From a virus: 64,000 bases of DNA. This document shows positions 27,965-46,873 of the stretch, in pieces; positions within the stretch are counted from its first letter, which is position 1, and each line of letters opens with the position of its first letter. The stretch lies in IMG/VR virus record IMGVR_UViG_3300045988_140636. One strand, written 5' to 3'. Position numbers and translations under genes: made by a program. The notes beneath the pieces were generated by a model. It did no database searches and was not told the DNA's origin. It was given only the letters and a program-made list of their open reading frames with translations.

Positions 27965-28539
27965 TTAAAGTCAAAACATTCTTGCGTTAGCAAATTTTGA
28001 AACTCTTCCAATAATCCAAGAGCAATTTGGGCTTCTCTGGCAGATCTGAAAGCAGCGAAGTTTTTGTAATCCTTGATACATTCTTTTTTCAGGTTATAAA
28101 CTTTCATACTAATTATATCTGCCATGTATATGTTAGGGCTATTACTAATATGATCTTCATAATTGGCATCTAGATCGATAGCTATTTCCCTTAAGAACAT
28201 AGTATATAGTGAAGCTGGACAAATATTAAGTAAGGTAAAAAGGAATTCTATAGAATTCTCTTCATTTAGACTGGATTTTTGGCATATTTTCCTAAGATAA
28301 TACTCTACATCTTTTTCAGATTTAAGGGGTCCTTCTTCTAGATCTTCTCTCTCTACTATTAAACCTTTTTTAATTAGTTTACTTATGCTATTAGGAAGTA
28401 CAATAAATTCTTGAATTACAGAAAAGTAATCTCCCCTACGTACTCTTCTTATAACGTCACCCATTTTTACTTCTTCACCTGCTTTAGTGTAATACCTTTT
28501 CTTATTCATATTTTTCTGTTTAATGTCAATATTCTTCAT
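27961..28539 (-). CDS. hypothetical protein
   Basis: ORF in operon spacing. Confidence 0.35.
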   Translation of the reverse strand: MKNIDIKQKNMNKKRYYTKAGEEVKMGDVIRRVRRGDYFSVIQEFIVLPNSISKLIKKGLIVEREDLEEGPLKSEKDVEYYLRKICQKSSLNEENSIEFLFTLLNICPASLYTMFLREIAIDLDANYEDHISNSPNIYMADIISMKVYNLKKECIKDYKNFAAFRSAREAQIALGLLEEFQNLLTQECFDFK

Positions 28540-29017
28540 ACCATTTTATGGAATACCCATAAATATCTCTTAATTTTTTATCTATTTCATCAAATAGATA
28601 ATGAGGCATCTTTGTCCCACTCCTTGCAAAATATGCAGGGTGTTCAATCTTCAAAACATGATTGAAATTCTTATTGATATACGGATCAAATGTTCCAGCT
28701 TGTTTACCGAATAATACATATACAATAGAACACAAATTTTCCGAAAGATTCTTTAATAATTTAGATATGAATGGTCTCCATAACATAACATGGGAGCCTA
28801 TTTTATTCATCTCCACAGTAAGAGCAGAGTTAATCATTAATATACCCTGCTTAGCCCAGTTCTCTAAAGTTTGGTCAAAGATAATGCTATCATGTGGAAT
28901 TTCCAAATTTATCACTGCTTCTTTTAATATTTTTAGAGAAGGCGACAAATCTTCTTCTGAAACTTCTTTTCTATTTCCAAACAGTACTCCAGTAGCTACT
29001 CCCTTTTGTGGATAAGG
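28526..29017 (-). CDS. ung: uracil-DNA glycosylase family 1, exon 2 (from PYPQKG...)
   Basis: Continues the E. coli Ung alignment after GQD (PYHGPGQAHG versus PYPQKGVATG); GILMINSALTV; C-terminal HPAYFARSG (HPSPLS-like); omega-G at 29018. Confidence 0.8.
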   Translation of the reverse strand, partial: PYPQKGVATGVLFGNRKEVSEEDLSPSLKILKEAVINLEIPHDSIIFDQTLENWAKQGILMINSALTVEMNKIGSHVMLWRPFISKLLKNLSENLCSIVYVLFGKQAGTFDPYINKNFNHVLKIEHPAYFARSGTKMPHYLFDEIDKKLRDIYGYSIKWYEEY

Positions 29018-29947
29018 CAATTTGTTACCCCAAAGGCTCTTTATCCTTTGGTTCTATATATTACTATATAGTTCGGACTATATCTTCATTGTTTCCAATG
29101 CAGGGCACTCGTGTCAGGTTTATTATTTGAGCTATTCACCTGTTAGTCTCTGAACCTTCTACATACTTTTATGCTCTTCTGTAGCTTGGCTGCTGATTGA
29201 CTCATTAAGTTGTTCCAGCAATTCACCCTGTTTATCCAGAACCCTTCTTTTACTATAAGTAATTAGTTTATATTGCATGGATGGAATAATATAATCTTTA
29301 ATTAGTTCTACAAACTTAGGAAAATCCTTAGCTTGTAGATACATACTATTATCATGTTTGCCTACAGTAAAATGTAAGTCAAATTTATTTAATAATATGT
29401 TAGCTAACAAAAGCTGTTCTTCAAGAGTAAATGAACAAGTAGATAAGGTACATGAATTTTTAGTTACATAACCATCATCCATATACCATATAGCCAAACC
29501 TAAAGCATCTATATCTTTTACAAATTCTTCAAAGATTCTTTTATGTCCATTAGAGTCATAATATTTTAATCTTATATTTGTAAAAATAGGATGTAATCTA
29601 GATTTAAATCTATATCCAACTAATTCATGTAAATATCTTTTATTATTTACATGATATTCAACTATAGGAGATACTAAGTTATATTTATTTAGTATCTCCC
29701 ATTTATACTCAAGATATTCTTTTTGTTTTTCAGAGTGCGCTATACTAAGACACATATTTTTAGCTGTTTTTCCTACTGAACAAAAACATCCATCACCTAA
29801 CAAACTTCCTATAAGAAGTTGTCTTAGATCATTTTCTACTTTAATTTCCTTGTAATTCTTCATACCATTAAGAATTTGGCACAAAGATAAGGTATTTGAC
29901 CTAATATTGCAATATTCTAGTTAAATTATTTATAGATTATTACCAAA
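29018..29947 (-). mobile_element. group I intron (930 nt) in the UDG gene with LAGLIDADG homing endonuclease
   Basis: Minus-strand Q (CAATCAGCAGCCAA, 29184-29197), R (GGTTCAGAGACT, 29145-29156) and S (AAGATATAGTCC, 29073-29084); P9 CUAUAUAGUAAUAUAUAG; ends GGUAACAAAUUG|; exon 1 ends in U (GAT). Confidence 0.85.
29159..29884 (-). CDS. LAGLIDADG homing endonuclease (double-motif), intron-encoded
   Basis: IGSLLGDGCFC and LAIWYMDDGY motifs; paralogous to 18545..19243. Confidence 0.85.
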   Translation of the reverse strand: MCQILNGMKNYKEIKVENDLRQLLIGSLLGDGCFCSVGKTAKNMCLSIAHSEKQKEYLEYKWEILNKYNLVSPIVEYHVNNKRYLHELVGYRFKSRLHPIFTNIRLKYYDSNGHKRIFEEFVKDIDALGLAIWYMDDGYVTKNSCTLSTCSFTLEEQLLLANILLNKFDLHFTVGKHDNSMYLQAKDFPKFVELIKDYIIPSMQYKLITYSKRRVLDKQGELLEQLNESISSQATEEHKSM

Positions 29948-30133
29948 ATCCTGCCCTAGAAACACTACCTTCAAATCCTCGAATGGACATAACTTAAAAG
30001 CCCTAAACACATCAGTTTGCTTAGGGCATACAGGCTTTATCATATACTCCTTAGATAACATATTCATTACATGATTAAGCTCTACTTTATCAATGACCTT
30101 CATCCAACCTCCAAAATATTCTTCTGTCGTCAT
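29948..30133 (-). CDS. ung: uracil-DNA glycosylase family 1, exon 1 (ends ...VVFLGQD)
   Basis: Matches the Ung N-terminus up to the catalytic GQD (E. coli VKVVILGQDPYH); the ORF-track tail FGNNL* is intron sequence. Confidence 0.8.
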
Positions 30134-30840
30134 TCAAGTGCTAGTAAATCGTCTATATTATTTTCTAAAAAATTATTTAGAGATTCATTTATATCTTCGC
30201 CTTGAGGTGGAGGAATAGTCTTTATGAACTCTTCAGCATTATCTATTTTAACTTCCACTTGGTTTAGGTATCTATAATCTACCAATTCCGAAAGGAATGC
30301 AGGAATAACCCTTTTAATTATATGTTTCTCTAATATACCTGGTCTATCTAATAAGAATAGCGTCGGAGACACATGTACTACTATCTTTCTAGTAGGAGTT
30401 AACCTGTGATCCTTCAATACGCAACAGGAGTTAACCATTAGTAACATATTCATGCATCTATCTAATATTATTCCTCTACATCCATAGTACACCTGATCTT
30501 TACAAGACACTTTACTCAAGGAGAATGAATCAAATAAGGCTCTAATTAATGAGTTACTTCCTAATGCAGTATTCTCTTTTGAGTTTAAGAACACAGGAGT
30601 AACTATTCTACATTTTCTTGACAACAGCTCATCGAACTCACTCCCAGATAGTTTAGAGAATTGGCTCCTCAGTATAGTGGGAATCTCTATATTCATATCC
30701 TCTCTTAGAGTAGCTTCAACAAGAATTCTATACGGGTTTGTATTGTTACTTCCATATAGTGAAGGGACAGATACTGAGGGTCTACTAATTGATATTGCTT
30801 TGTATAAGTCCTCTATATATTTTTCTGAAAAAATCATCAT
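30130..30840 (-). CDS. hypothetical protein (236 aa) in the E1/JAB cluster
   Basis: Start/stop overlap with E1-like gene; several Cys (GCRGIILDRCMNMLLMVNSCC); no family recognised. Confidence 0.4.
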   Translation of the reverse strand: MMIFSEKYIEDLYKAISISRPSVSVPSLYGSNNTNPYRILVEATLREDMNIEIPTILRSQFSKLSGSEFDELLSRKCRIVTPVFLNSKENTALGSNSLIRALFDSFSLSKVSCKDQVYYGCRGIILDRCMNMLLMVNSCCVLKDHRLTPTRKIVVHVSPTLFLLDRPGILEKHIIKRVIPAFLSELVDYRYLNQVEVKIDNAEEFIKTIPPPQGEDINESLNNFLENNIDDLLALE

Positions 30841-31787
30841 GATATAGTTTTAAAATACATAGTTTCTGCATTATATTCAGTATAGAACGGAAGGTCCCTG
30901 TCTATAAGTGGATTACATTTATTTGCTATAAAATTGACAAACAAATTAACTATAACAGATCCAATCATATTAGCCATAAAAGTAGTTTGTTTATAACTGC
31001 ATACAGTAGGATCGGCCTCAAAGTCTGAGAACAAATAAGGCTCATATCTTCGTATATTATCCATATCGTCTCCTTTTATACAGAACACTTGAAATTCTTC
31101 TGCTGCCAATCTGCCATCTATAAACAGACATTCTTCTCGCCTCTCTTTGGGTAATTCTAACACCCTATCAGTCCAATTCTTAAAAGCATCCTTTCTAGCT
31201 TTCATATTATCGAACCCACAAATAGTTATTCCAGTTATAGCTGAAGAGGTATCCAGTTTTTTAGTTAGAGCTGAAACACTATGATAGTCTGAATAATTTT
31301 CTATCATATCTGCTATAGCATCTGCCTTATAAAGACCTATTTGAGACTTACTATATAACTGTCCGGACAAATTAACTGTTTCTACTTTATCTGGGTCATA
31401 TAAAGTTAGTGACCTGACATCCATTCTAGATAACATAAATACTACATAGCTTCCTATCCCTCCTAATCCAGCTACAGTAATATTTTGCTTAAGTATCTTA
31501 TCAAACCAAAGGGCAGAGTTAAATCTAGATGTCCCTTCTTTTATTAATAAGGTCTTAGAATTTTCAGGAATTTTATCTATAACCAAATCCTGATCTATTA
31601 GTGCAGATATTAACATAGAATGTTCTTCTTCATCAAGATAAAATTTACTACCCTCTACAGTAATTTCACTAACAAATTCTCCATCCATAATAACTTGCCT
31701 AATACTGGAAATAGCCTTTCCTTTGATTAACTCTATTAAGTCCCCTACAGCTAGTGATTCATTAGGGCTTTGATCTAATCTTTTCAT
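30837..31787 (-). CDS. ThiF/MoeB-family E1-like adenylyltransferase with about 100-aa N-terminal extension
   Basis: Rossmann VAGLGGIGSYV (GxGxxG), LYDPDKVETVNLSGQLY, and ITICGFDNMKARKDAF (compare MoeB/E1 VLDCTDNFETR). Confidence 0.7.
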   Translation of the reverse strand: MKRLDQSPNESLAVGDLIELIKGKAISSIRQVIMDGEFVSEITVEGSKFYLDEEEHSMLISALIDQDLVIDKIPENSKTLLIKEGTSRFNSALWFDKILKQNITVAGLGGIGSYVVFMLSRMDVRSLTLYDPDKVETVNLSGQLYSKSQIGLYKADAIADMIENYSDYHSVSALTKKLDTSSAITGITICGFDNMKARKDAFKNWTDRVLELPKERREECLFIDGRLAAEEFQVFCIKGDDMDNIRRYEPYLFSDFEADPTVCSYKQTTFMANMIGSVIVNLFVNFIANKCNPLIDRDLPFYTEYNAETMYFKTIS

Positions 31788-31802
31788 ATTATCATTTCTC
31801 CT

Positions 31803-32987
31803 TTAAAAAATATAATCACATAATATTTTAATATATTCTCCTATATATATATTACTATCAAGCTTCTCTAATTCTTCTTTGATTGCAGTAGCACATAATG
31901 TAACTATCTCATCGTCATCCACTCCTTGTTTAACCAAATCCTCATCTATTGTATACCAACATAGGAATTCTATAAATCCTTCAGCCCACTTCTTGAACAT
32001 CTCCAGTCCTTCTTCTCCCTTCCCAAATCTTCTTTCATATATAGGTATCATTCCTGCTACCCAAGATTTTATATTTATTTTACTTTCTCTAGGGATAACC
32101 ACACTTCCTGTTACTAATTGAAGGGCTAAAGACTTTGCCAGACCTTTATCAAAACTATGCTTCTTTGTATCATCTCTAAATTTTAAAGTCTGCTGTCTCT
32201 GACTTAAATCATCTTCTTCCATTAGATTATATGTATCCTTTTGTGTCAATGATTCAAACTTGGAAAAAGGCTTATACGTGTGAAGAGGAGGATCAAATCT
32301 ACTATTTATTTTCTGAATCTTAGACTCCTCTATCTCTTTAAGTCTGGATTCTAACTCTGTATATTCACTACACCCTTCTACTTCTATATCAAGGTAGTAA
32401 TATTCCAATTCCTCAGTATTAGTTCCTTCAAAATTTCGAACTTCCTTGATTTGTGTGTTACCAAAACTAGGATAACAGAAACTTTCCACAATACACTTGT
32501 TAACCAATCTTCTAGTTATGGCTGCTGTATAATTCCCTCTATTATTAACTATTAAGGAAACAAAGTGATTCCTATCCAATCCTTCCTCTTTCAGAGTTCT
32601 TATATCTGTTCCACTGAAGGAGGTATCCATGTTATTATGTGAATGGATTAATCCCATATGACAATCTAACAGCTCAGGGTTGTTCACTACATAACTGCAT
32701 ACATCAGGAGACATATCAAACTCCGTATAAGCAGAACTTCCGATATCCATAACACATATATCTTCACATTTTATGATTAGACTTCTATCTTCAAAGGATC
32801 CCTCAGATGTAAAAAATAGAACTCCGGACCACTCATCTTTCCATACCTTTCTACATATGTATATTATTTTTTCTTCTACTTTCTTCGGTATTATCATTTT
32901 ATAAGTAGTAGAATTCTCGGTCATCTGAATTGTTTGTTTCTCTACTTTTTTCTGACTCGTCTCTAAGACTTGATTTATTCCTTCCAT
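31803..32987 (-). CDS. JAB/MPN (JAMM) metallopeptidase domain protein with about 200-aa C-terminal extension
   Basis: JAMM motif HSHNNMDTSFSGTD (HxHx7Sx2D) with upstream Glu (KDEWSG). Confidence 0.7.
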   Translation of the reverse strand: MEGINQVLETSQKKVEKQTIQMTENSTTYKMIIPKKVEEKIIYICRKVWKDEWSGVLFFTSEGSFEDRSLIIKCEDICVMDIGSSAYTEFDMSPDVCSYVVNNPELLDCHMGLIHSHNNMDTSFSGTDIRTLKEEGLDRNHFVSLIVNNRGNYTAAITRRLVNKCIVESFCYPSFGNTQIKEVRNFEGTNTEELEYYYLDIEVEGCSEYTELESRLKEIEESKIQKINSRFDPPLHTYKPFSKFESLTQKDTYNLMEEDDLSQRQQTLKFRDDTKKHSFDKGLAKSLALQLVTGSVVIPRESKINIKSWVAGMIPIYERRFGKGEEGLEMFKKWAEGFIEFLCWYTIDEDLVKQGVDDDEIVTLCATAIKEELEKLDSNIYIGEYIKILCDYIF

Positions 32988-34212
32988 ATTTACAATTTAC
33001 TAATTTTAATATTCTATTCAGTAAAAAACCTATTATCCCTGGATTTAAGATGGTAGTAATATAATTATTAATAGTATCTCCTTCTACTATATGAACTACT
33101 ACTTCTTTCCCCTTAAATGTGCCCATCACTCCTAGATTAGATTTATCAATCTCTAAAATACCCAGGATATTAGTGATTCTGTAAATAATACCCTTCGATA
33201 CAAATACTTTGGTTAAAATATTTTCTAGAGACTCTTCCTCTTTTCTTATCATTCCTTTTTGATATATATATCTTCCTTTGGTATTAAACCAATTGATAAA
33301 TTCATTACTTACTAGTAGTATAAATTTCGTTATACTCATACCAATAGAATAACCCCCATTTTTGTAATTGAAGATAAGTTTTTTCTGTTCTATGAAATAT
33401 TTAATGAAATCATAAACCATAGGCCTCAAACATGATGCTATATATACCGAATCATTAAGACTGATATGAACTATTTTAGCACTTCTGTTAAAAACTACTT
33501 CCTCTAATCTCCTATAAGGACCTCCACTTAGGGATTCTGTTGCTACATACTTCTCCAATTCTACACAAAACAGTCTCCAAATATCCAAATCATAATGAAA
33601 GTTCAAGGAATTTACTGTATTTCTTATAGGACCGCTTCCCAAACACACTTGAAGAAACTCTTTAAAGTTCTCCCTTGGTATTCCACATACATGGGAATGC
33701 ATATAGTCACAAAAATACTGTGTCATTGTATATTCCCCTCTATTAAAAGAGAAGGATCCTTCCATAGTGCCCCCCATATCTATTGGTACTTTGACATATA
33801 GTTCAGTAATATCTATAAAATGATCATGTTCATTACTAACTCTTACTCTTGGGAAGTATACTATGATGTAAAACTGTATCTCACTCTCTAATTTCGACAT
33901 TATCTTATCCAGAAGATCCCTAATGCTAGGGATACTACTTAGAATTTCATCAGGTATGTCCTTTATTAATTGTATATTAGACATTTTTTCCTTTAACCTG
34001 GATGACTCCTCAGTGCCCAGTGCTGTTCCAATACTTATATTATCATAAGTTTTCGAGAATTCCTCTTCTATTTCTGAAATGGTAGGAACATTTTGTAAGT
34101 CTACCTTATCTTCTCCAAAGAAATCTTCGAATATTTCCAGTACACTTGTTACATTTCGTAAATGTTCCTTACATATTGCTTCTATAACTTTCCTAGTTTT
34201 TTCCCCTATCAT
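32899..34212 (-). CDS. hypothetical protein (437 aa) in the E1/JAB cluster
   Basis: Large ORF overlapping the JAB gene start; no family recognised. Confidence 0.4.
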   Translation of the reverse strand: MIGEKTRKVIEAICKEHLRNVTSVLEIFEDFFGEDKVDLQNVPTISEIEEEFSKTYDNISIGTALGTEESSRLKEKMSNIQLIKDIPDEILSSIPSIRDLLDKIMSKLESEIQFYIIVYFPRVRVSNEHDHFIDITELYVKVPIDMGGTMEGSFSFNRGEYTMTQYFCDYMHSHVCGIPRENFKEFLQVCLGSGPIRNTVNSLNFHYDLDIWRLFCVELEKYVATESLSGGPYRRLEEVVFNRSAKIVHISLNDSVYIASCLRPMVYDFIKYFIEQKKLIFNYKNGGYSIGMSITKFILLVSNEFINWFNTKGRYIYQKGMIRKEEESLENILTKVFVSKGIIYRITNILGILEIDKSNLGVMGTFKGKEVVVHIVEGDTINNYITTILNPGIIGFLLNRILKLVNCKYGRNKSSLRDESEKSRETNNSDDREFYYL

Positions 34213-34221
34213 ATCATATAA

Positions 34222-34256
34222 TAAAAAAAAAGCAGGTAAGAAAAATCTTACCTGCT
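34222..34256 (-). terminator. intrinsic terminator (GCAGGTAAG/CTTACCTGC hairpin followed by a U10 run on the minus strand)
   Basis: 9-bp perfect stem 34232-34240/34247-34255; A-run on plus equals T-run on minus. Confidence 0.55.
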
Positions 34257-34272
34257 AGTAAACAAACCCTTA

Positions 34273-34902
34273 TCAAACAAAATCAAACATTTCATCAATC
34301 TCATCATCTGAGTAGGTGGAGAGCCCTTTTTTTGGCTTTGCAGTGTTAGAGGAGTACTTACCACTAAGAATATTAGTAGCCTCCTCTCTTTCCAAAATTT
34401 CAGCATCTACCAAAGAGTCTAACAGACATTTAATAGAGGTTCTCAATGAAGTTACTTCTTTCTCTAAATCACCTTTGGGAGCTTCTTCCTTAGATGTAGA
34501 ACCGTGATGCTCTTCAATCAGTTTCAGAAGATCTTCAGATTTACACAGAGTATAATTTTTCCCATACTTTCTAATACAGGCATCTTCCAAGTGATATTCT
34601 TTTATACCATTGTAAATCTCTTTTCTATTTACAGCTCCGGATTTAATCTTTTTATTAGGAGAAGTCAACATGAACACAAGCTCATTAGTAGTCTGTCCTT
34701 TATAAAGGACATCATGAGGAAGAATAGAACCATCATCGATTAATTCAGTTTTTGAAAGTCCTTCATAGAATGTCATGTCCTGATAATTTACGCCTGTTCT
34801 ATCCAGATCTCTCTTCAGTTCCCCTAATGTAGTAGCACTGGACATAATTACTTTTTTCTCTTGTGTTCTCGTAGATACGATTGTGATTTTTCTTGCTTCC
34901 AT
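34273..34902 (-). CDS. ubiquitin-like (beta-grasp) N-terminal domain protein, 209 aa, acidic C-terminus
   Basis: Residues 5-80 follow the ubiquitin pattern (KITIVSTRTQEKKVIMSSATTLGELKRDL...GVNYQDMTFYEGLSKTELIDDGSILPHDVL...NELVFML versus Ub QIFVKTLTGKTITLEV...LEDGRTLSDYNI...LHLVL); no C-terminal GG. Confidence 0.4.
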   Translation of the reverse strand: MEARKITIVSTRTQEKKVIMSSATTLGELKRDLDRTGVNYQDMTFYEGLSKTELIDDGSILPHDVLYKGQTTNELVFMLTSPNKKIKSGAVNRKEIYNGIKEYHLEDACIRKYGKNYTLCKSEDLLKLIEEHHGSTSKEEAPKGDLEKEVTSLRTSIKCLLDSLVDAEILEREEATNILSGKYSSNTAKPKKGLSTYSDDEIDEMFDFV

Positions 34903-35961: not shown

Positions 35962-36888
35962 TTATTTATCAAACCACGGAGAGGGTTGCATTGGCATGTC
36001 AAAAGGAGATCCTGTCTGGGTCAAGTCATTATTGAAGTCAGTCGGTTCTATTGTGTACTCCTTTAAATCACAGACTTCAAATTCTGTAGTAGGATAAGCT
36101 CCAGCGGCTTTTCTGTTTTGAAGTTCTTCATCCAGTTTGCTATAATCTGCCACACTATTCTTCAAGAACTTTTGAACATAAACAGCTTGATACTGTTTGC
36201 CATCTTCAGTAGTTCTTACTCCGAATAGACCTTTGACTCTGTTCTTAGGCTGCAAAGAAATTGCTTCTTTCAATTCTGAATAATCTCCTTTGAAATAATT
36301 TTCAATCTTATCCAATCTAGCTTCCGCATCAGCTTTATTAGGAAGTTCTACCACTTCTCCATTGGATTTTCTATAGGATTTATTAGGAATATTTAAATAT
36401 GCCTTCAAGAATCCTGTAAGATCCTCTTCCCCTATATAAGCCGGCCTAAAATCAGCAGGTTCGAACCAATTAAGGTTGGATGGAACAGTGCCAGATTTTG
36501 CATTTTCTATAGGCAGCCAAGTAGTTTCTCCATATTTATTTATTACTTGAACTTTGCTTCCATCTCTGTTATATCTAACCTCCCTGGCAATGAAGAAAGA
36601 TATTTTAGTTCTCATATCAATTCCATTGCATTTCTCAGGGTCTGTCTGTACAATAAAATCTATTCTTACTTGAGGAACAGTATGTTTATCACCTTCTGGA
36701 CCAACTTCAACTTCACTTAAATATGAAGGGCCATCATTAATAGTGGTATTATACAATTTTTCTAGTGTTTCCTTATCAGGATTAACAGCTAACACACCTA
36801 CTGAGCCTACTCCAATATACTTTTTAACTGCACTACCTTCTGTAGATTCACTACCTGTGGCAAAAGCCATAAAGATTTTGTTCGTCAT
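35962..36888 (-). CDS. hypothetical protein (possible ssDNA-binding protein by position)
   Basis: Between primase and helicase-associated genes; no motif recognised. Confidence 0.3.
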   Translation of the reverse strand: MTNKIFMAFATGSESTEGSAVKKYIGVGSVGVLAVNPDKETLEKLYNTTINDGPSYLSEVEVGPEGDKHTVPQVRIDFIVQTDPEKCNGIDMRTKISFFIAREVRYNRDGSKVQVINKYGETTWLPIENAKSGTVPSNLNWFEPADFRPAYIGEEDLTGFLKAYLNIPNKSYRKSNGEVVELPNKADAEARLDKIENYFKGDYSELKEAISLQPKNRVKGLFGVRTTEDGKQYQAVYVQKFLKNSVADYSKLDEELQNRKAAGAYPTTEFEVCDLKEYTIEPTDFNNDLTQTGSPFDMPMQPSPWFDK

Positions 36889-36940
36889 ACTTAATATTTT
36901 TTAATATACTTAATAATAAATATTGTTTACTTGATATTTC

Positions 36941-37327
36941 TTAACTAAAGCTGGGACCTTCAGATGGTACATCATCATCCATCTCAGAACATTGGAAGAA
37001 TTCATCATGGATTTCATACACTTTCTCTTTCTCATTAAATACTAATACACCTTCTTTTGGTTCGTATTTAGTTATTTTAATAGGTTTCCCGTTTCTATCC
37101 ATTTTACCAGTATCCTCAACTACTCTGGTTATTAGTTCCTCACTAGTATGTCCTGTGAGCATTTTTACTCCGACTTCATGGCCTTCTATTTCATTAATCA
37201 AGTCATTGCATTCCTTACTCAGTTCTTTTATTTGTTCTGTCAATTTATTCTTTCTAATAACTAAAGAACTTACATTTTGTGCTACTCTTTTTATGGTAGC
37301 TAGTTGTCTAATTGAAATTGTTTTCAT
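36941..37327 (-). CDS. hypothetical coiled-coil protein
   Basis: ORF in operon spacing. Confidence 0.35.
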   Translation of the reverse strand: MKTISIRQLATIKRVAQNVSSLVIRKNKLTEQIKELSKECNDLINEIEGHEVGVKMLTGHTSEELITRVVEDTGKMDRNGKPIKITKYEPKEGVLVFNEKEKVYEIHDEFFQCSEMDDDVPSEGPSFS

Positions 37328-37328
37328 G

Positions 37329-37592
37329 TTAATACACTAAAATTGTTTTGTTATTACTATCTTTTATTTCTACTATATTTAATTTACGCTTGTAATATTC
37401 TACTATTTCAGTAAAATATGTACCAATAATCCCAATACTTAAAAGGATCTTAATGAAATGTTTTGTTAACTCAACATCTTTATTGTGCTCTTTACAACAA
37501 TATTCTGTGAATAGATTAATTACTTCTTCTGTTTCAATAGCTCCTCCTCTTGTAATTTTATCTACCACTCTAATTATAGTTTCCTTATCCAT
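37329..37592 (-). CDS. hypothetical protein
   Basis: ORF in operon spacing. Confidence 0.3.
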   Translation of the reverse strand: MDKETIIRVVDKITRGGAIETEEVINLFTEYCCKEHNKDVELTKHFIKILLSIGIIGTYFTEIVEYYKRKLNIVEIKDSNNKTILVY

Positions 37593-46756: not shown

Positions 46757-46801
46757 TTTTTTTGTTAAAAGTTAATGAATAAGAGGTATAAATAGTTATA
46801 G

Positions 46802-46873
46802 TAACTCCTCCCAGACTCGAACTGGGATTAGAGGCTTAGAAGGCCACTGTTCTTTCCATTGAACCAAGGAGTC
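46802..46873 (-). tRNA. tRNA-Arg (anticodon UCU)
   Basis: Minus strand GACTCCT-TG-GTTC-AATGGAAA-GAAC-A-GTGGC-CTTCTAA-GCCTC-TAAT-CCCAG-TTCGAGT-CTGGG-AGGAGTT-A. The 7-bp acceptor stem has one G-U pair. D- and T-stems are perfect, with a TTCGAGT T-loop. The anticodon stem has one U-U mismatch; U33 and A37 are present. Confidence 0.6.

Follow-up and report, generated by a model that had tools for sequence, protein, structure and literature searches.

A candidate four-gene ubiquitin-like conjugation cassette in the replication module of crAss001-like and FpV4-like phages

In prokaryotes, descriptions of the conjugation of ubiquitin-like proteins (Ubls) have so far presented it as a means by which bacteria fight phages: it serves this end in the Bil system, in the type II cyclic-oligonucleotide-based antiphage signalling system (CBASS) and probably in Bub. 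In Bil, the JAB peptidase BilC trims BilA and exposes a conserved glycine. Type I Bub makes its Ubl fused to the conjugating enzyme (E2), and the JAB peptidase of the same operon cuts it right after a conserved glycine. The activating enzyme (E1) of Bub is a minimal, homodimeric enzyme similar to UBA5 and ThiF, and its E2 has a UBC fold that has diverged and contains an invariant Ser-x-His. In phages, the only earlier pairing of a Ubl with a JAB peptidase that we found described was that of TAPI (Ubl) and TAPK (JAB with NlpC/P60); TAPI of the lambdoid and T1 phages consists of a Ubl with a conserved C-terminal glycine, a linker and a small C-terminal domain, and was predicted to be cut by the JAB peptidase (Iyer et al. 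2006). Here we analysed the 64,000-nucleotide viral record IMGVR_UViG_3300045988_140636 (the whole stretch is called the window below), in which a phage gene cassette brings together a ubiquitin-fold protein, an E2-like candidate, a JAB peptidase and an E1-like enzyme. The DNA was 75% identical at the nucleotide level to the uncultured phage cr128_1 (Crassvirales, Steigviridae, Asinivirinae), in keeping with the crAss-like origin assumed in a preliminary description that was made from the letters of the window.

We consider it somewhat better than an even chance that the core of this cassette is an autonomous four-gene phage Ubl conjugation cascade, in which the JAB peptidase sets the Ubl free from a fusion precursor. 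The preliminary description had listed five co-directional genes. All five open reading frames (ORFs) were present, closely packed on the minus strand between a DnaG-type primase gene and a uracil-DNA glycosylase (UDG) gene, and are given here in the order of transcription:

34902-34273, minus strand: p209, a 209-amino-acid putative pro-Ubl fusion (ORF; orthologue of crAss001 gp79)
34212-32899, minus strand: p437, a 437-amino-acid protein (ORF; orthologue of crAss001 gp78)
32987-31803, minus strand: a 394-amino-acid JAB/MPN+ metallopeptidase (ORF; orthologue of crAss001 gp77)
31787-30837, minus strand: a 316-amino-acid E1-like adenylation enzyme (ORF; orthologue of crAss001 gp76)
30840-30130, minus strand: p236, a 236-amino-acid protein (ORF; orthologue of crAss001 gp75)

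The same gene block was found in Bacteroides phage crAss001 (gp79 to gp75), Dulem virus 41 and Flavobacterium psychrophilum phage FpV4. The records of these relatives label the E1 as "thiamine biosynthesis protein", the JAB peptidase as "metalloprotease domain" and the other cassette genes as "hypothetical", and the PHROG families of all four core genes carry the label "unknown function".

The first 80 residues of p209 had been thought to follow the ubiquitin pattern, and structure prediction bore this out. The p209 family was large (4908 clusters at 90% identity), and no sequence-level match to ubiquitin-like families was obtained in Pfam or in PDB profile searches; NCBIfam, PHROGs and PADLOC were likewise uninformative for p209. 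The AlphaFold2 (AF2) model, built from a 37-sequence alignment and with a mean pLDDT of 78, contained a β-grasp with strands at residues 4-10, 15-21, 44-47, 65-67, 70-72, and 75-80 and a helix at residues 26-36; residues 4-80 were predicted confidently (pLDDT about 82-94). A Foldseek search of the PDB with this model returned ubiquitin variants, SUMO, DIX, TINCR, and UBX (probability 1.00, target TM 0.6-0.73, E ~3e-3). The protein was divided into three parts:

34663-34902, minus strand: ubiquitin-like β-grasp domain, p209 residues 1-80 (AF2 and Foldseek)
34636-34662, minus strand: flexible Ubl tail SPNKKIKSG, p209 residues 81-89, which follows the last strand, ELVFMLT
34276-34635, minus strand: C-terminal part, p209 residues 90-209 (AF2 secondary structure and conservation)

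At the SPNKKIKSG tail the pLDDT fell to 58, and the residues P82, K84, S88, and G89 were invariant, including in the orthologues from FpV4 and Dulem virus 41, which were 28-34% identical. Every further divergent locus examined retained KKI[KR]SG. The preliminary description had remarked that no Ubl ending in Gly-Gly was encoded. This is literally so, but the invariant tail occupied a disordered linker right after the β-grasp, and its conserved glycine lay inside p209 instead of at the C-terminus of the protein. The JAB peptidases of Bil and Bub cleave their pro-Ubls at the corresponding position. As judged from these alignments, the p209 family has a conserved glycine where the C-terminus of a Ubl would be expected, embedded in a putative precursor. 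The Ser88-Gly89 pair (Gly89 codon at 34636-34638) is the predicted site of both JAB cleavage and E1 activation.

The C-terminal part of p209, for which no Pfam or PDB match was found, was composed of a three-helix domain (residues 93-133), a variable linker, helices within residues 144-180, and a conserved acidic and aromatic tail ending in ...YSDDEIDEMFDFV (window 34276-34320). The acidic end of the family, ...YSDDEIDxMFDF, was conserved, and the tail motif was not kept in FpV4 and Dulem virus 41. We take this tail to resemble the interaction tails of single-strand-binding proteins (for example, E. coli SSB and T7 gp2.5), which are likewise acidic with an aromatic end. A HeH/SAP-like nature of the module can be suggested by inference only. 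If freed, the module may have a replication-related role of its own, an arrangement that would recall the eukaryotic fusions of ubiquitin to ribosomal proteins.

A natural break at the Ser-Gly junction was found in 3 of 79 related loci (L013 3201-4414, L018 3425-4354, and L032 3048-4349), in which the p209 gene was split into two ORFs. The first ORF ended in ...NKKI[KR]SG-KF or ...SG-IC followed by the stop codon, i.e., two codons after Ser-Gly, and the second began with MNTNNM-TR(T/A)EAY, the same residues as come after Ser-Gly where the gene is unsplit. The DNA between them was a free-standing NUMOD4-HNH_3-NUMOD1 homing endonuclease gene, which was degraded in L018. A group I intron was considered as the cause of the split in L013 and rejected, as no Rfam match was found at the split; gene fission was the better reading because the insertion consisted almost entirely of the free-standing HNH ORF, with hardly any non-coding DNA. 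In the phages with the split gene, the Ubl (with two extra residues) and the C-terminal module are thus made as two polypeptides. The split shows the Ser-Gly junction to be a true functional boundary, across which covalent continuity is dispensable. It fits a protein that is normally cut at Ser-Gly, and falls short of proof of such cutting. As a separate observation, the HNH ORF of L013 (3478-3996) opened with ATG GAA ATT TGA AAG GAT and had an in-frame TGA as its fourth codon. Endonucleases of that HNH class usually have Trp at this position (MEIW-KD...), and the TGA either marks a pseudogene or hints at TGA-to-Trp recoding in the L013 phage.

The peptidase that would make this cut was encoded in the same cassette. 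The JAMM-motif protein with a 200-residue extension that had been noted before was recovered in Pfam as Prok-JAB with 25.2 bits, against a cut-off of 25 (residues 34-149):

32541-32888, minus strand: JAMM core of the JAB peptidase (Pfam and motif)

The full JAMM motif (E52...H115-x-H117-x7-S125-x2-D128) was invariant across five distant phages, including FpV4. The C-terminal extension of ~200 amino acids was real, and no relatives of it were detectable. The ORFs of p437 and the JAB peptidase overlapped by 89 nucleotides (32899-32987), and by 60-125 nucleotides in crAss001, Dulem virus 41 and FpV4. An in-frame ATG of the JAB gene (Met31) was located 1 nucleotide past the p437 stop codon (TAAAATG). 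Because of this codon, the overlap is possibly an artefact of ORF calling; the true start may be Met31, with translational coupling. A programmed frameshift across the two ORFs was also considered and was dropped, as the in-frame Met31 ATG explains the layout.

The E1 had been recognised by its GxGxxG and CGFDNM motifs and its extra N-terminal domain. Pfam assigned it to ThiF (PF00899, 65.4 bits, with a cut-off of 28.1, residues 96-200), and the motifs GLGGIGS and CGFDNM were present and conserved. The N-terminal extension (residues 1-85) was real but variable: FpV4 and Dulem virus 41 had none, and the one in crAss001 was unrelated. The adenylation domain comprised residues 86-316. Since the core measured ~230 amino acids and the N-terminal 85 residues were variable between lineages, the enzyme classes as a minimal ThiF/UBA5-type E1 and not as a BilD-type enzyme, which has an inactive adenylation domain (IAD), an active adenylation domain (AAD) and a CYS domain. 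A profile of five distant orthologues placed the E1 closest, among solved structures, to UBA5, PaaA, MccB, TcdA, and MoeB, for the Rossmann part only, and a PDB search with the C-terminal half alone gave no matches. In hhalign, the E1 was aligned with a hand-entered sequence of E. coli MoeB, with a probability of 97% over 166 columns. The residues G107, G109, G110, D131, K154, and D193 were invariant among distant orthologues, and D193 aligned with D130 of MoeB. In the same comparison, C263 (codon 30999-31001) aligned with C187 at the end of the crossover loop, and no CxxC zinc site was found; C263 was invariant in 5 distant orthologues and conserved across 81 family members. Apart from one canonical Arg, which is replaced by an invariant Gly (G142), the E1 looks competent, and its invariant Cys263 may serve in thioester or acyl-disulfide chemistry.

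The presence of PaaA and MccB among the best solved relatives (E ~2e-12 to 3e-11) raised the question of whether the E1 instead adenylates the C-terminus of a peptide to produce a nucleotide-peptide toxin or signal, with maturation by the JAB peptidase. The E1 of the window also has an extra N-terminal domain, as MccB has. However, that domain is not a constant feature of the family, as described above, and the matches were limited to the shared Rossmann region and were no better than that of UBA5. Moreover, a folded ubiquitin-like substrate was encoded next door, and no peptide-export or immunity genes were found nearby. A peptide-modifying enzyme of this kind is therefore regarded as very improbable.

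The protein p437, one of the two partners that had been left without a family in the preliminary description, was the candidate for the E2. An exhaustive profile search showed that its family comprised 2450 clusters at 50% identity, and among the best 150 of these 2450 clusters no link to annotated families was found. The AF2 model (mean pLDDT 78, pTM 0.61) showed an N-terminal helical domain, a helix at residues 95-111, four consecutive strands within residues 114-172, a 20-residue loop with a His-Ser-His motif and Cys190, helices within residues 195-223, and a C-terminal α/β domain. In this model, the central topology is the UBC/RWD topology:

33538-33930, minus strand: candidate E2/UBC-superfamily domain, p437 residues 95-225 (AF2 topology and invariant residues)

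In 151 diverse members, the invariant residues were N127-E128, N157, Y161, Y170-x-H172-S173-H174, C190-x-G-x-G-P, W212, C216, and E226-S227-x2-G-x-P, all clustered in one stretch. S173 and C190 both lie in the loop after strand 4 (codons of H172-S173-H174 at 33691-33699 and of Cys190 at 33643-33645). The motif is H-S-H and not HPN as in E2s. An E2/UBC fold, which the preliminary description had named as one thing to look for, thus emerged at the level of predicted topology but not in the profile searches: p437 gave no match in Pfam, NCBIfam, or PADLOC, PHROGs were uninformative, and the PDB profile search was negative. An hhalign comparison of the domain with four canonical E2s, whose sequences were entered by hand, reached a probability of 0.1%, and a Foldseek search of the PDB with the model gave no significant match. 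Because the sequence tests and the PDB Foldseek search were all negative, "E2-like" denotes the likeliest fold assignment, which we hold to be distinctly probable, and not an established membership of the E2 family.

The E1 and p437 data also bear on a sulfur-carrier pathway, in which the JAB-trimmed Ubl would be a carrier similar to ThiS, MoaD or CysO and would be thiocarboxylated by the E1. The sulfur would then go to a nucleotide, a cofactor or a DNA or RNA modification that serves phage replication, with the cysteines of p437 as relays. The top NCBIfam models of the E1 were ThiS-adenylating ThiF families (PRK08644, 71 bits; thiF_fam2, 60 bits), but these scores covered the Rossmann part only and were far below the curated cut-offs (71 vs. 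159 for PRK08644). Cys263 aligned with C187 of MoeB, the position that we take to be equivalent to that of ThiF C184, which forms an acyl-disulfide. The module also sits among nucleotide-metabolism genes (UDG in the window; ribonucleotide reductase and dUTPase in relatives), and triads of JAB, a ThiS/MoaD-like protein and an E1 occur in bacterial sulfur assimilation (Iyer et al. 2006). Against this pathway, neither the module nor the genes right next to it showed a rhodanese, a cysteine desulfurase or an enzyme that accepts sulfur, the tail ends in Ser-Gly and not Gly-Gly, the fold neighbours of p437 were E2 and RWD domains and not sulfurtransferases, and the gene order was that of conjugation systems. 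Both the carrier role of the Ubl and the onward transfer of sulfur are considered unlikely.

The distribution of the cassette was examined by tblastn of each protein against 50,697 phage records. The co-occurrence that the preliminary description had suggested examining was clear for the core: p209, p437 and the JAB peptidase were each matched in 74 records, which were divided among the taxa in the same way for all three (29 Bacteroides, 29 Flavobacterium, 12 uncultured, and 4 others), and the E1 was matched in 77, i.e., in the cassette records and in 3 further records with weak generic ThiF matches. The carriers were crAss001-like phages and Flavobacterium FpV4-like phages, from the gut and from a fish pathogen, and the cassette was not detected in other Crassvirales of the collection at the tblastn sensitivity used. 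The full five-gene block was intact in 77 of 84 fetched related loci; the other 7 were truncated at contig ends or belonged to the two most distant phages, in which p236 was not detectable. The gene order Ubl, E2-like protein, JAB, and E1 was also kept in more divergent contigs. Among the genomes of 185,579 species searched for bacterial carriers, 4 matches were found, all on contigs of metagenome-assembled genomes (MAGs) that resembled crAss-type phage DNA, with search patterns that catch fairly close relatives only. The p437 family appears to be confined to phages. In one divergent contig (L091 2335-3808), a 107-amino-acid gene followed the p437 homologue and was itself followed by a 352-amino-acid ORF with a faint LAGLIDADG_3 match; the JAB gene there may be interrupted by another homing endonuclease.

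Of the two partners proposed for the module, p437 co-occurred strictly with the core, but p236 did not. It was matched in 37 records, all from Bacteroides crAss-like phages, and was undetectable in FpV4 and Dulem virus 41; homology to the genes at the same position in these two phages was not supported by comparison. The p236 family was fast-evolving, had 7 homologue clusters only in a large database, and contained no conserved Cys or His. The profile searches suggested for it assigned nothing, with no informative match in Pfam, NCBIfam, PHROGs, PADLOC or the PDB. Since p236 is confined to one lineage and unrelated to the positional genes of FpV4 and Dulem virus 41, the core consists of four genes, and p236 is probably a lineage-specific add-on and not a demonstrable partner of the system.

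The preliminary description had pointed to counter-defence, for example by reversing or hijacking host Ubl conjugation. In such a role, the JAB peptidase would strip host Ubl or cGAS-type conjugates (Bil and type II CBASS) from proteins of the phage or the host, and the E1-, E2- and Ubl-like proteins would jam the host systems as decoys or competitors. The known bacterial Ubl systems (Bil, CBASS Cap2/Cap3, and probably Bub) are directed against phages, the phage JAB active site was intact and weakly matched the PADLOC CBASS JAB model (16.5 bits, E 0.0011), and an E1 that has lost the canonical adenylation Arg would suit a non-catalytic binder. However, the other adenylation residues of the E1, its crossover-loop Cys, and Cys190 and His-Ser-His of p437 were invariant in very distant phages, which argues for catalysis. 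The phage Ubl also has an invariant processing-type tail of its own, and none of the four proteins was close in sequence to the host Bil or Cap proteins. A decoy or stripping role is accordingly judged improbable. The set of activating, probable carrier and trimming proteins looked complete, and autonomous conjugation is therefore favoured over mere reversal of host conjugation.

The position of the p209 gene in the locus was relevant to a further explanation. Upstream of the cassette lay a Sak4-like ATPase gene and the primase gene, and a terminator-like hairpin occupied the 60-nucleotide gap between p209 and p437:

35942-34941, minus strand: DnaG-type primase, upstream of p209 (PHROG DNA primase, Toprim)
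34221-34256, minus strand: terminator-like hairpin (11-bp stem) with a T8 run, in the p209/p437 gap

A hairpin with a T-run recurred in the corresponding gap of 49 of 76 related loci, and its stems were unrelated in crAss001, FpV4 and others. The remaining junctions of the cassette were overlaps or gaps of ≤38 nucleotides. The hairpin could weaken read-through, so that the Ubl precursor would be in excess over the enzymes. Together with the position in the replication module, it suggests early or middle expression, with more precursor than enzymes. On the other hand, p209 might act intact as a replisome adaptor, in which the UBL docks and the helical domain and acidic tail bind DNA or the replisome, while the three enzymes act elsewhere or only regulate the stability of p209. 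It is common for proteins with a UBL domain never to be conjugated. The p209 gene comes right behind the primase gene and is cut off from the enzyme genes by the conserved hairpin, and its ...DDEIDxMFDF tail, with its inferred SSB-type likeness, is conserved. A scaffold of this kind does not account for the strict co-occurrence of p209 with the E1, the JAB peptidase and p437, nor for the Ser-Gly of the linker, which was invariant even in FpV4 and Dulem virus 41, where the tail motif was not kept. The loci with the split gene show, moreover, that covalent continuity is dispensable at this point. Both the adaptor role of p209 and the separate action of the enzymes are considered quite unlikely.

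We return to the conjugation cascade, which is preferred because the phage cassette combines traits of Bil and Type I Bub and has the gene order of Bil. In this cascade, p209 would be a pro-Ubl made of the ubiquitin fold (residues 1-80), a basic flexible tail ending in Ser88-Gly89, and the 120-residue C-terminal module. The JAB peptidase would cut just after Gly89, so that the freed Ubl has 89 residues and a Gly at its C-terminus and the C-terminal module is released as well. The minimal E1 (probably homodimeric, in the manner of ThiF/UBA5) would adenylate Gly89 and take the Ubl onto Cys263 as a thioester. From there, the Ubl would be handed to the E2-like domain of p437, onto Cys190 or the His-Ser-His site, possibly its serine. 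With no E3 present, the choice of targets would fall to the N- and C-terminal domains of p437, and these targets might be phage or host proteins of replication or defence. The JAB peptidase may also undo the conjugation.

Several points weigh against the cascade. The Ubl lies within a longer protein, its tail is Ser-Gly instead of Gly-Gly, and its cleavage is a prediction only. In the E1, an invariant G142 (codon 31362-31364) replaces the Arg of the N-x-x-R-Q motif, R73 of MoeB. An Arg of this type is needed for adenylation in the characterised relatives. In BilD, the mutation R246A of an adenylation-site Arg abolishes adenylation, although R246 may not be the equivalent of R73. The closest NCBIfam models of the E1 were, even far below their cut-offs, those of ThiS-adenylating ThiF. 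The hairpin after p209 could mark a boundary between transcription units. Finally, no target, no E3 and no experimental report was found in the literature searched. With these points taken into account, we put at about an even chance that a large lineage of Bacteroidota phages (the Steigviridae crAss001-like phages and the Flavobacterium FpV4-like phages) runs a complete Ubl cascade of its own during replication and tags host or phage proteins with it.

Other features of the window were recorded around the cassette. Directly downstream, the UDG gene (28526-30133, minus strand) was interrupted within its GQD|PY motif, with exon 1 at 30133-29930 and exon 2 at ~29020-28526. A group I intron was recognised at 29300-29054 (Rfam RF00028, 80.9 bits vs. 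a cut-off of 50), and a LAGLIDADG_2 homing endonuclease ORF was located inside the intron at 29884-29159 (Pfam, 115.7 bits). Upstream, between the Sak4-like ATPase and the primase, three conserved genes of 308, 128, and 87 amino acids (35962-37592, minus strand) had no Pfam or PHROG match and were the equivalents of crAss001 gp81-gp83; the crAss001 equivalent of the 87-amino-acid gene is labelled "ABC-type cobalt transporter", apparently in error. A single tRNA-Arg(TCT) was located at 46801-46873 on the minus strand, and the GC and AT skews changed sign at ~46-48 kb, where the genes switched from the minus to the plus strand.

If the cascade operates, it would be the first Ubl conjugation system of a bacterial virus and would reverse the picture of Ubl conjugation as a weapon of bacteria against phages; it would be a viral counterpart, and possibly a source or sink, of Bil and Bub. 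Our literature search, in which subscription journals were incompletely covered, found no paper that ties crAss-like phages to ThiF, JAB or ubiquitin-like systems. The questions raised are what the phage tags (defence or replication proteins of the host, or its own replisome), whether parts were exchanged with bacterial systems, and how a minimal E1 works without the Arg. The cassette is carried by cultured phage-host pairs (crAss001 with Bacteroides intestinalis, DAC15/17 with B. thetaiotaomicron, and FpV4 with Flavobacterium psychrophilum) and can be tested directly in them. A function would thereby be given to four "hypothetical" or mis-named genes of abundant human-gut phages.

Among the known systems, BilABCD, a bacterial ISG15-like anti-phage system with Types I and II, is similar in having four genes in the order Ubl-E2-JAB-E1, a likeness that rests on the tentative E2 assignment. 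The Gly-exposing JAB step has its precedent there, and Bil has no E3 either, its E2 being proposed to pick the targets. The phage cassette differs from Bil in its location, as it was found in a replication module and only in phage genomes or phage-like MAG contigs, whereas Bil is found in bacterial defence loci. The phage E1 has a single adenylation domain and its Cys where the crossover loop ends, whereas BilD has an IAD, an AAD and a mobile CYS domain. The phage Ubl consists of one β-grasp and a 120-amino-acid extension, whereas the extension of BilA is 0-9 residues long, and the E2-like domain is embedded in a three-domain protein of 437 amino acids. In PADLOC, no match to the BilA, BilB or BilC models was obtained, and the BilD model was matched with 28 bits in the Rossmann part only.

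Type I Bub (6E.1/DUF6527) fuses the Ubl to the E2 and the JAB to the E1, whereas the phage genes are all separate and the fusion partner of the phage Ubl is a helical and acidic module that appears to be non-enzymatic. The E1 and E2 of Bub have no catalytic cysteines and use oxyesters, whereas the phage proteins keep Cys263 and Cys190, and no DUF6527 (BubE) protease was matched in Pfam among the five phage proteins. In type II CBASS, the CD-NTase itself is conjugated by Cap2, in which an E2 and an E1 are fused, whereas the phage parts are separate and include a dedicated Ubl; no CD-NTase or effector match was found in the five proteins or in the immediate neighbours scanned. The ThiF-ThiS, MoeB-MoaD and CysO-Mec+ systems share with the cassette a single-domain ThiF-type E1, the Cys aligned with MoeB C187, a small β-grasp partner and sometimes a JAB peptidase. 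The phage E1 differs from theirs in its scores below the cut-offs, in the loss of the Arg equivalent to R73 and in having no CxxC zinc site, and the phage cassette differs in its Ser-Gly tail, in its E2-like protein and in having no sulfur-mobilising genes in the module or next to it. TAPI and TAPK belong to a tail-assembly module without E1 or E2, whereas the cassette described here lies in a replication module and includes both an E1 and an E2-like protein. Because its parts come from known superfamilies and its logic matches that of Bil and Bub, the cassette is not categorically new; it is a phage-borne and very divergent arrangement, with a putative pro-Ubl fused to a non-enzymatic partner and an E2-like protein of three domains.

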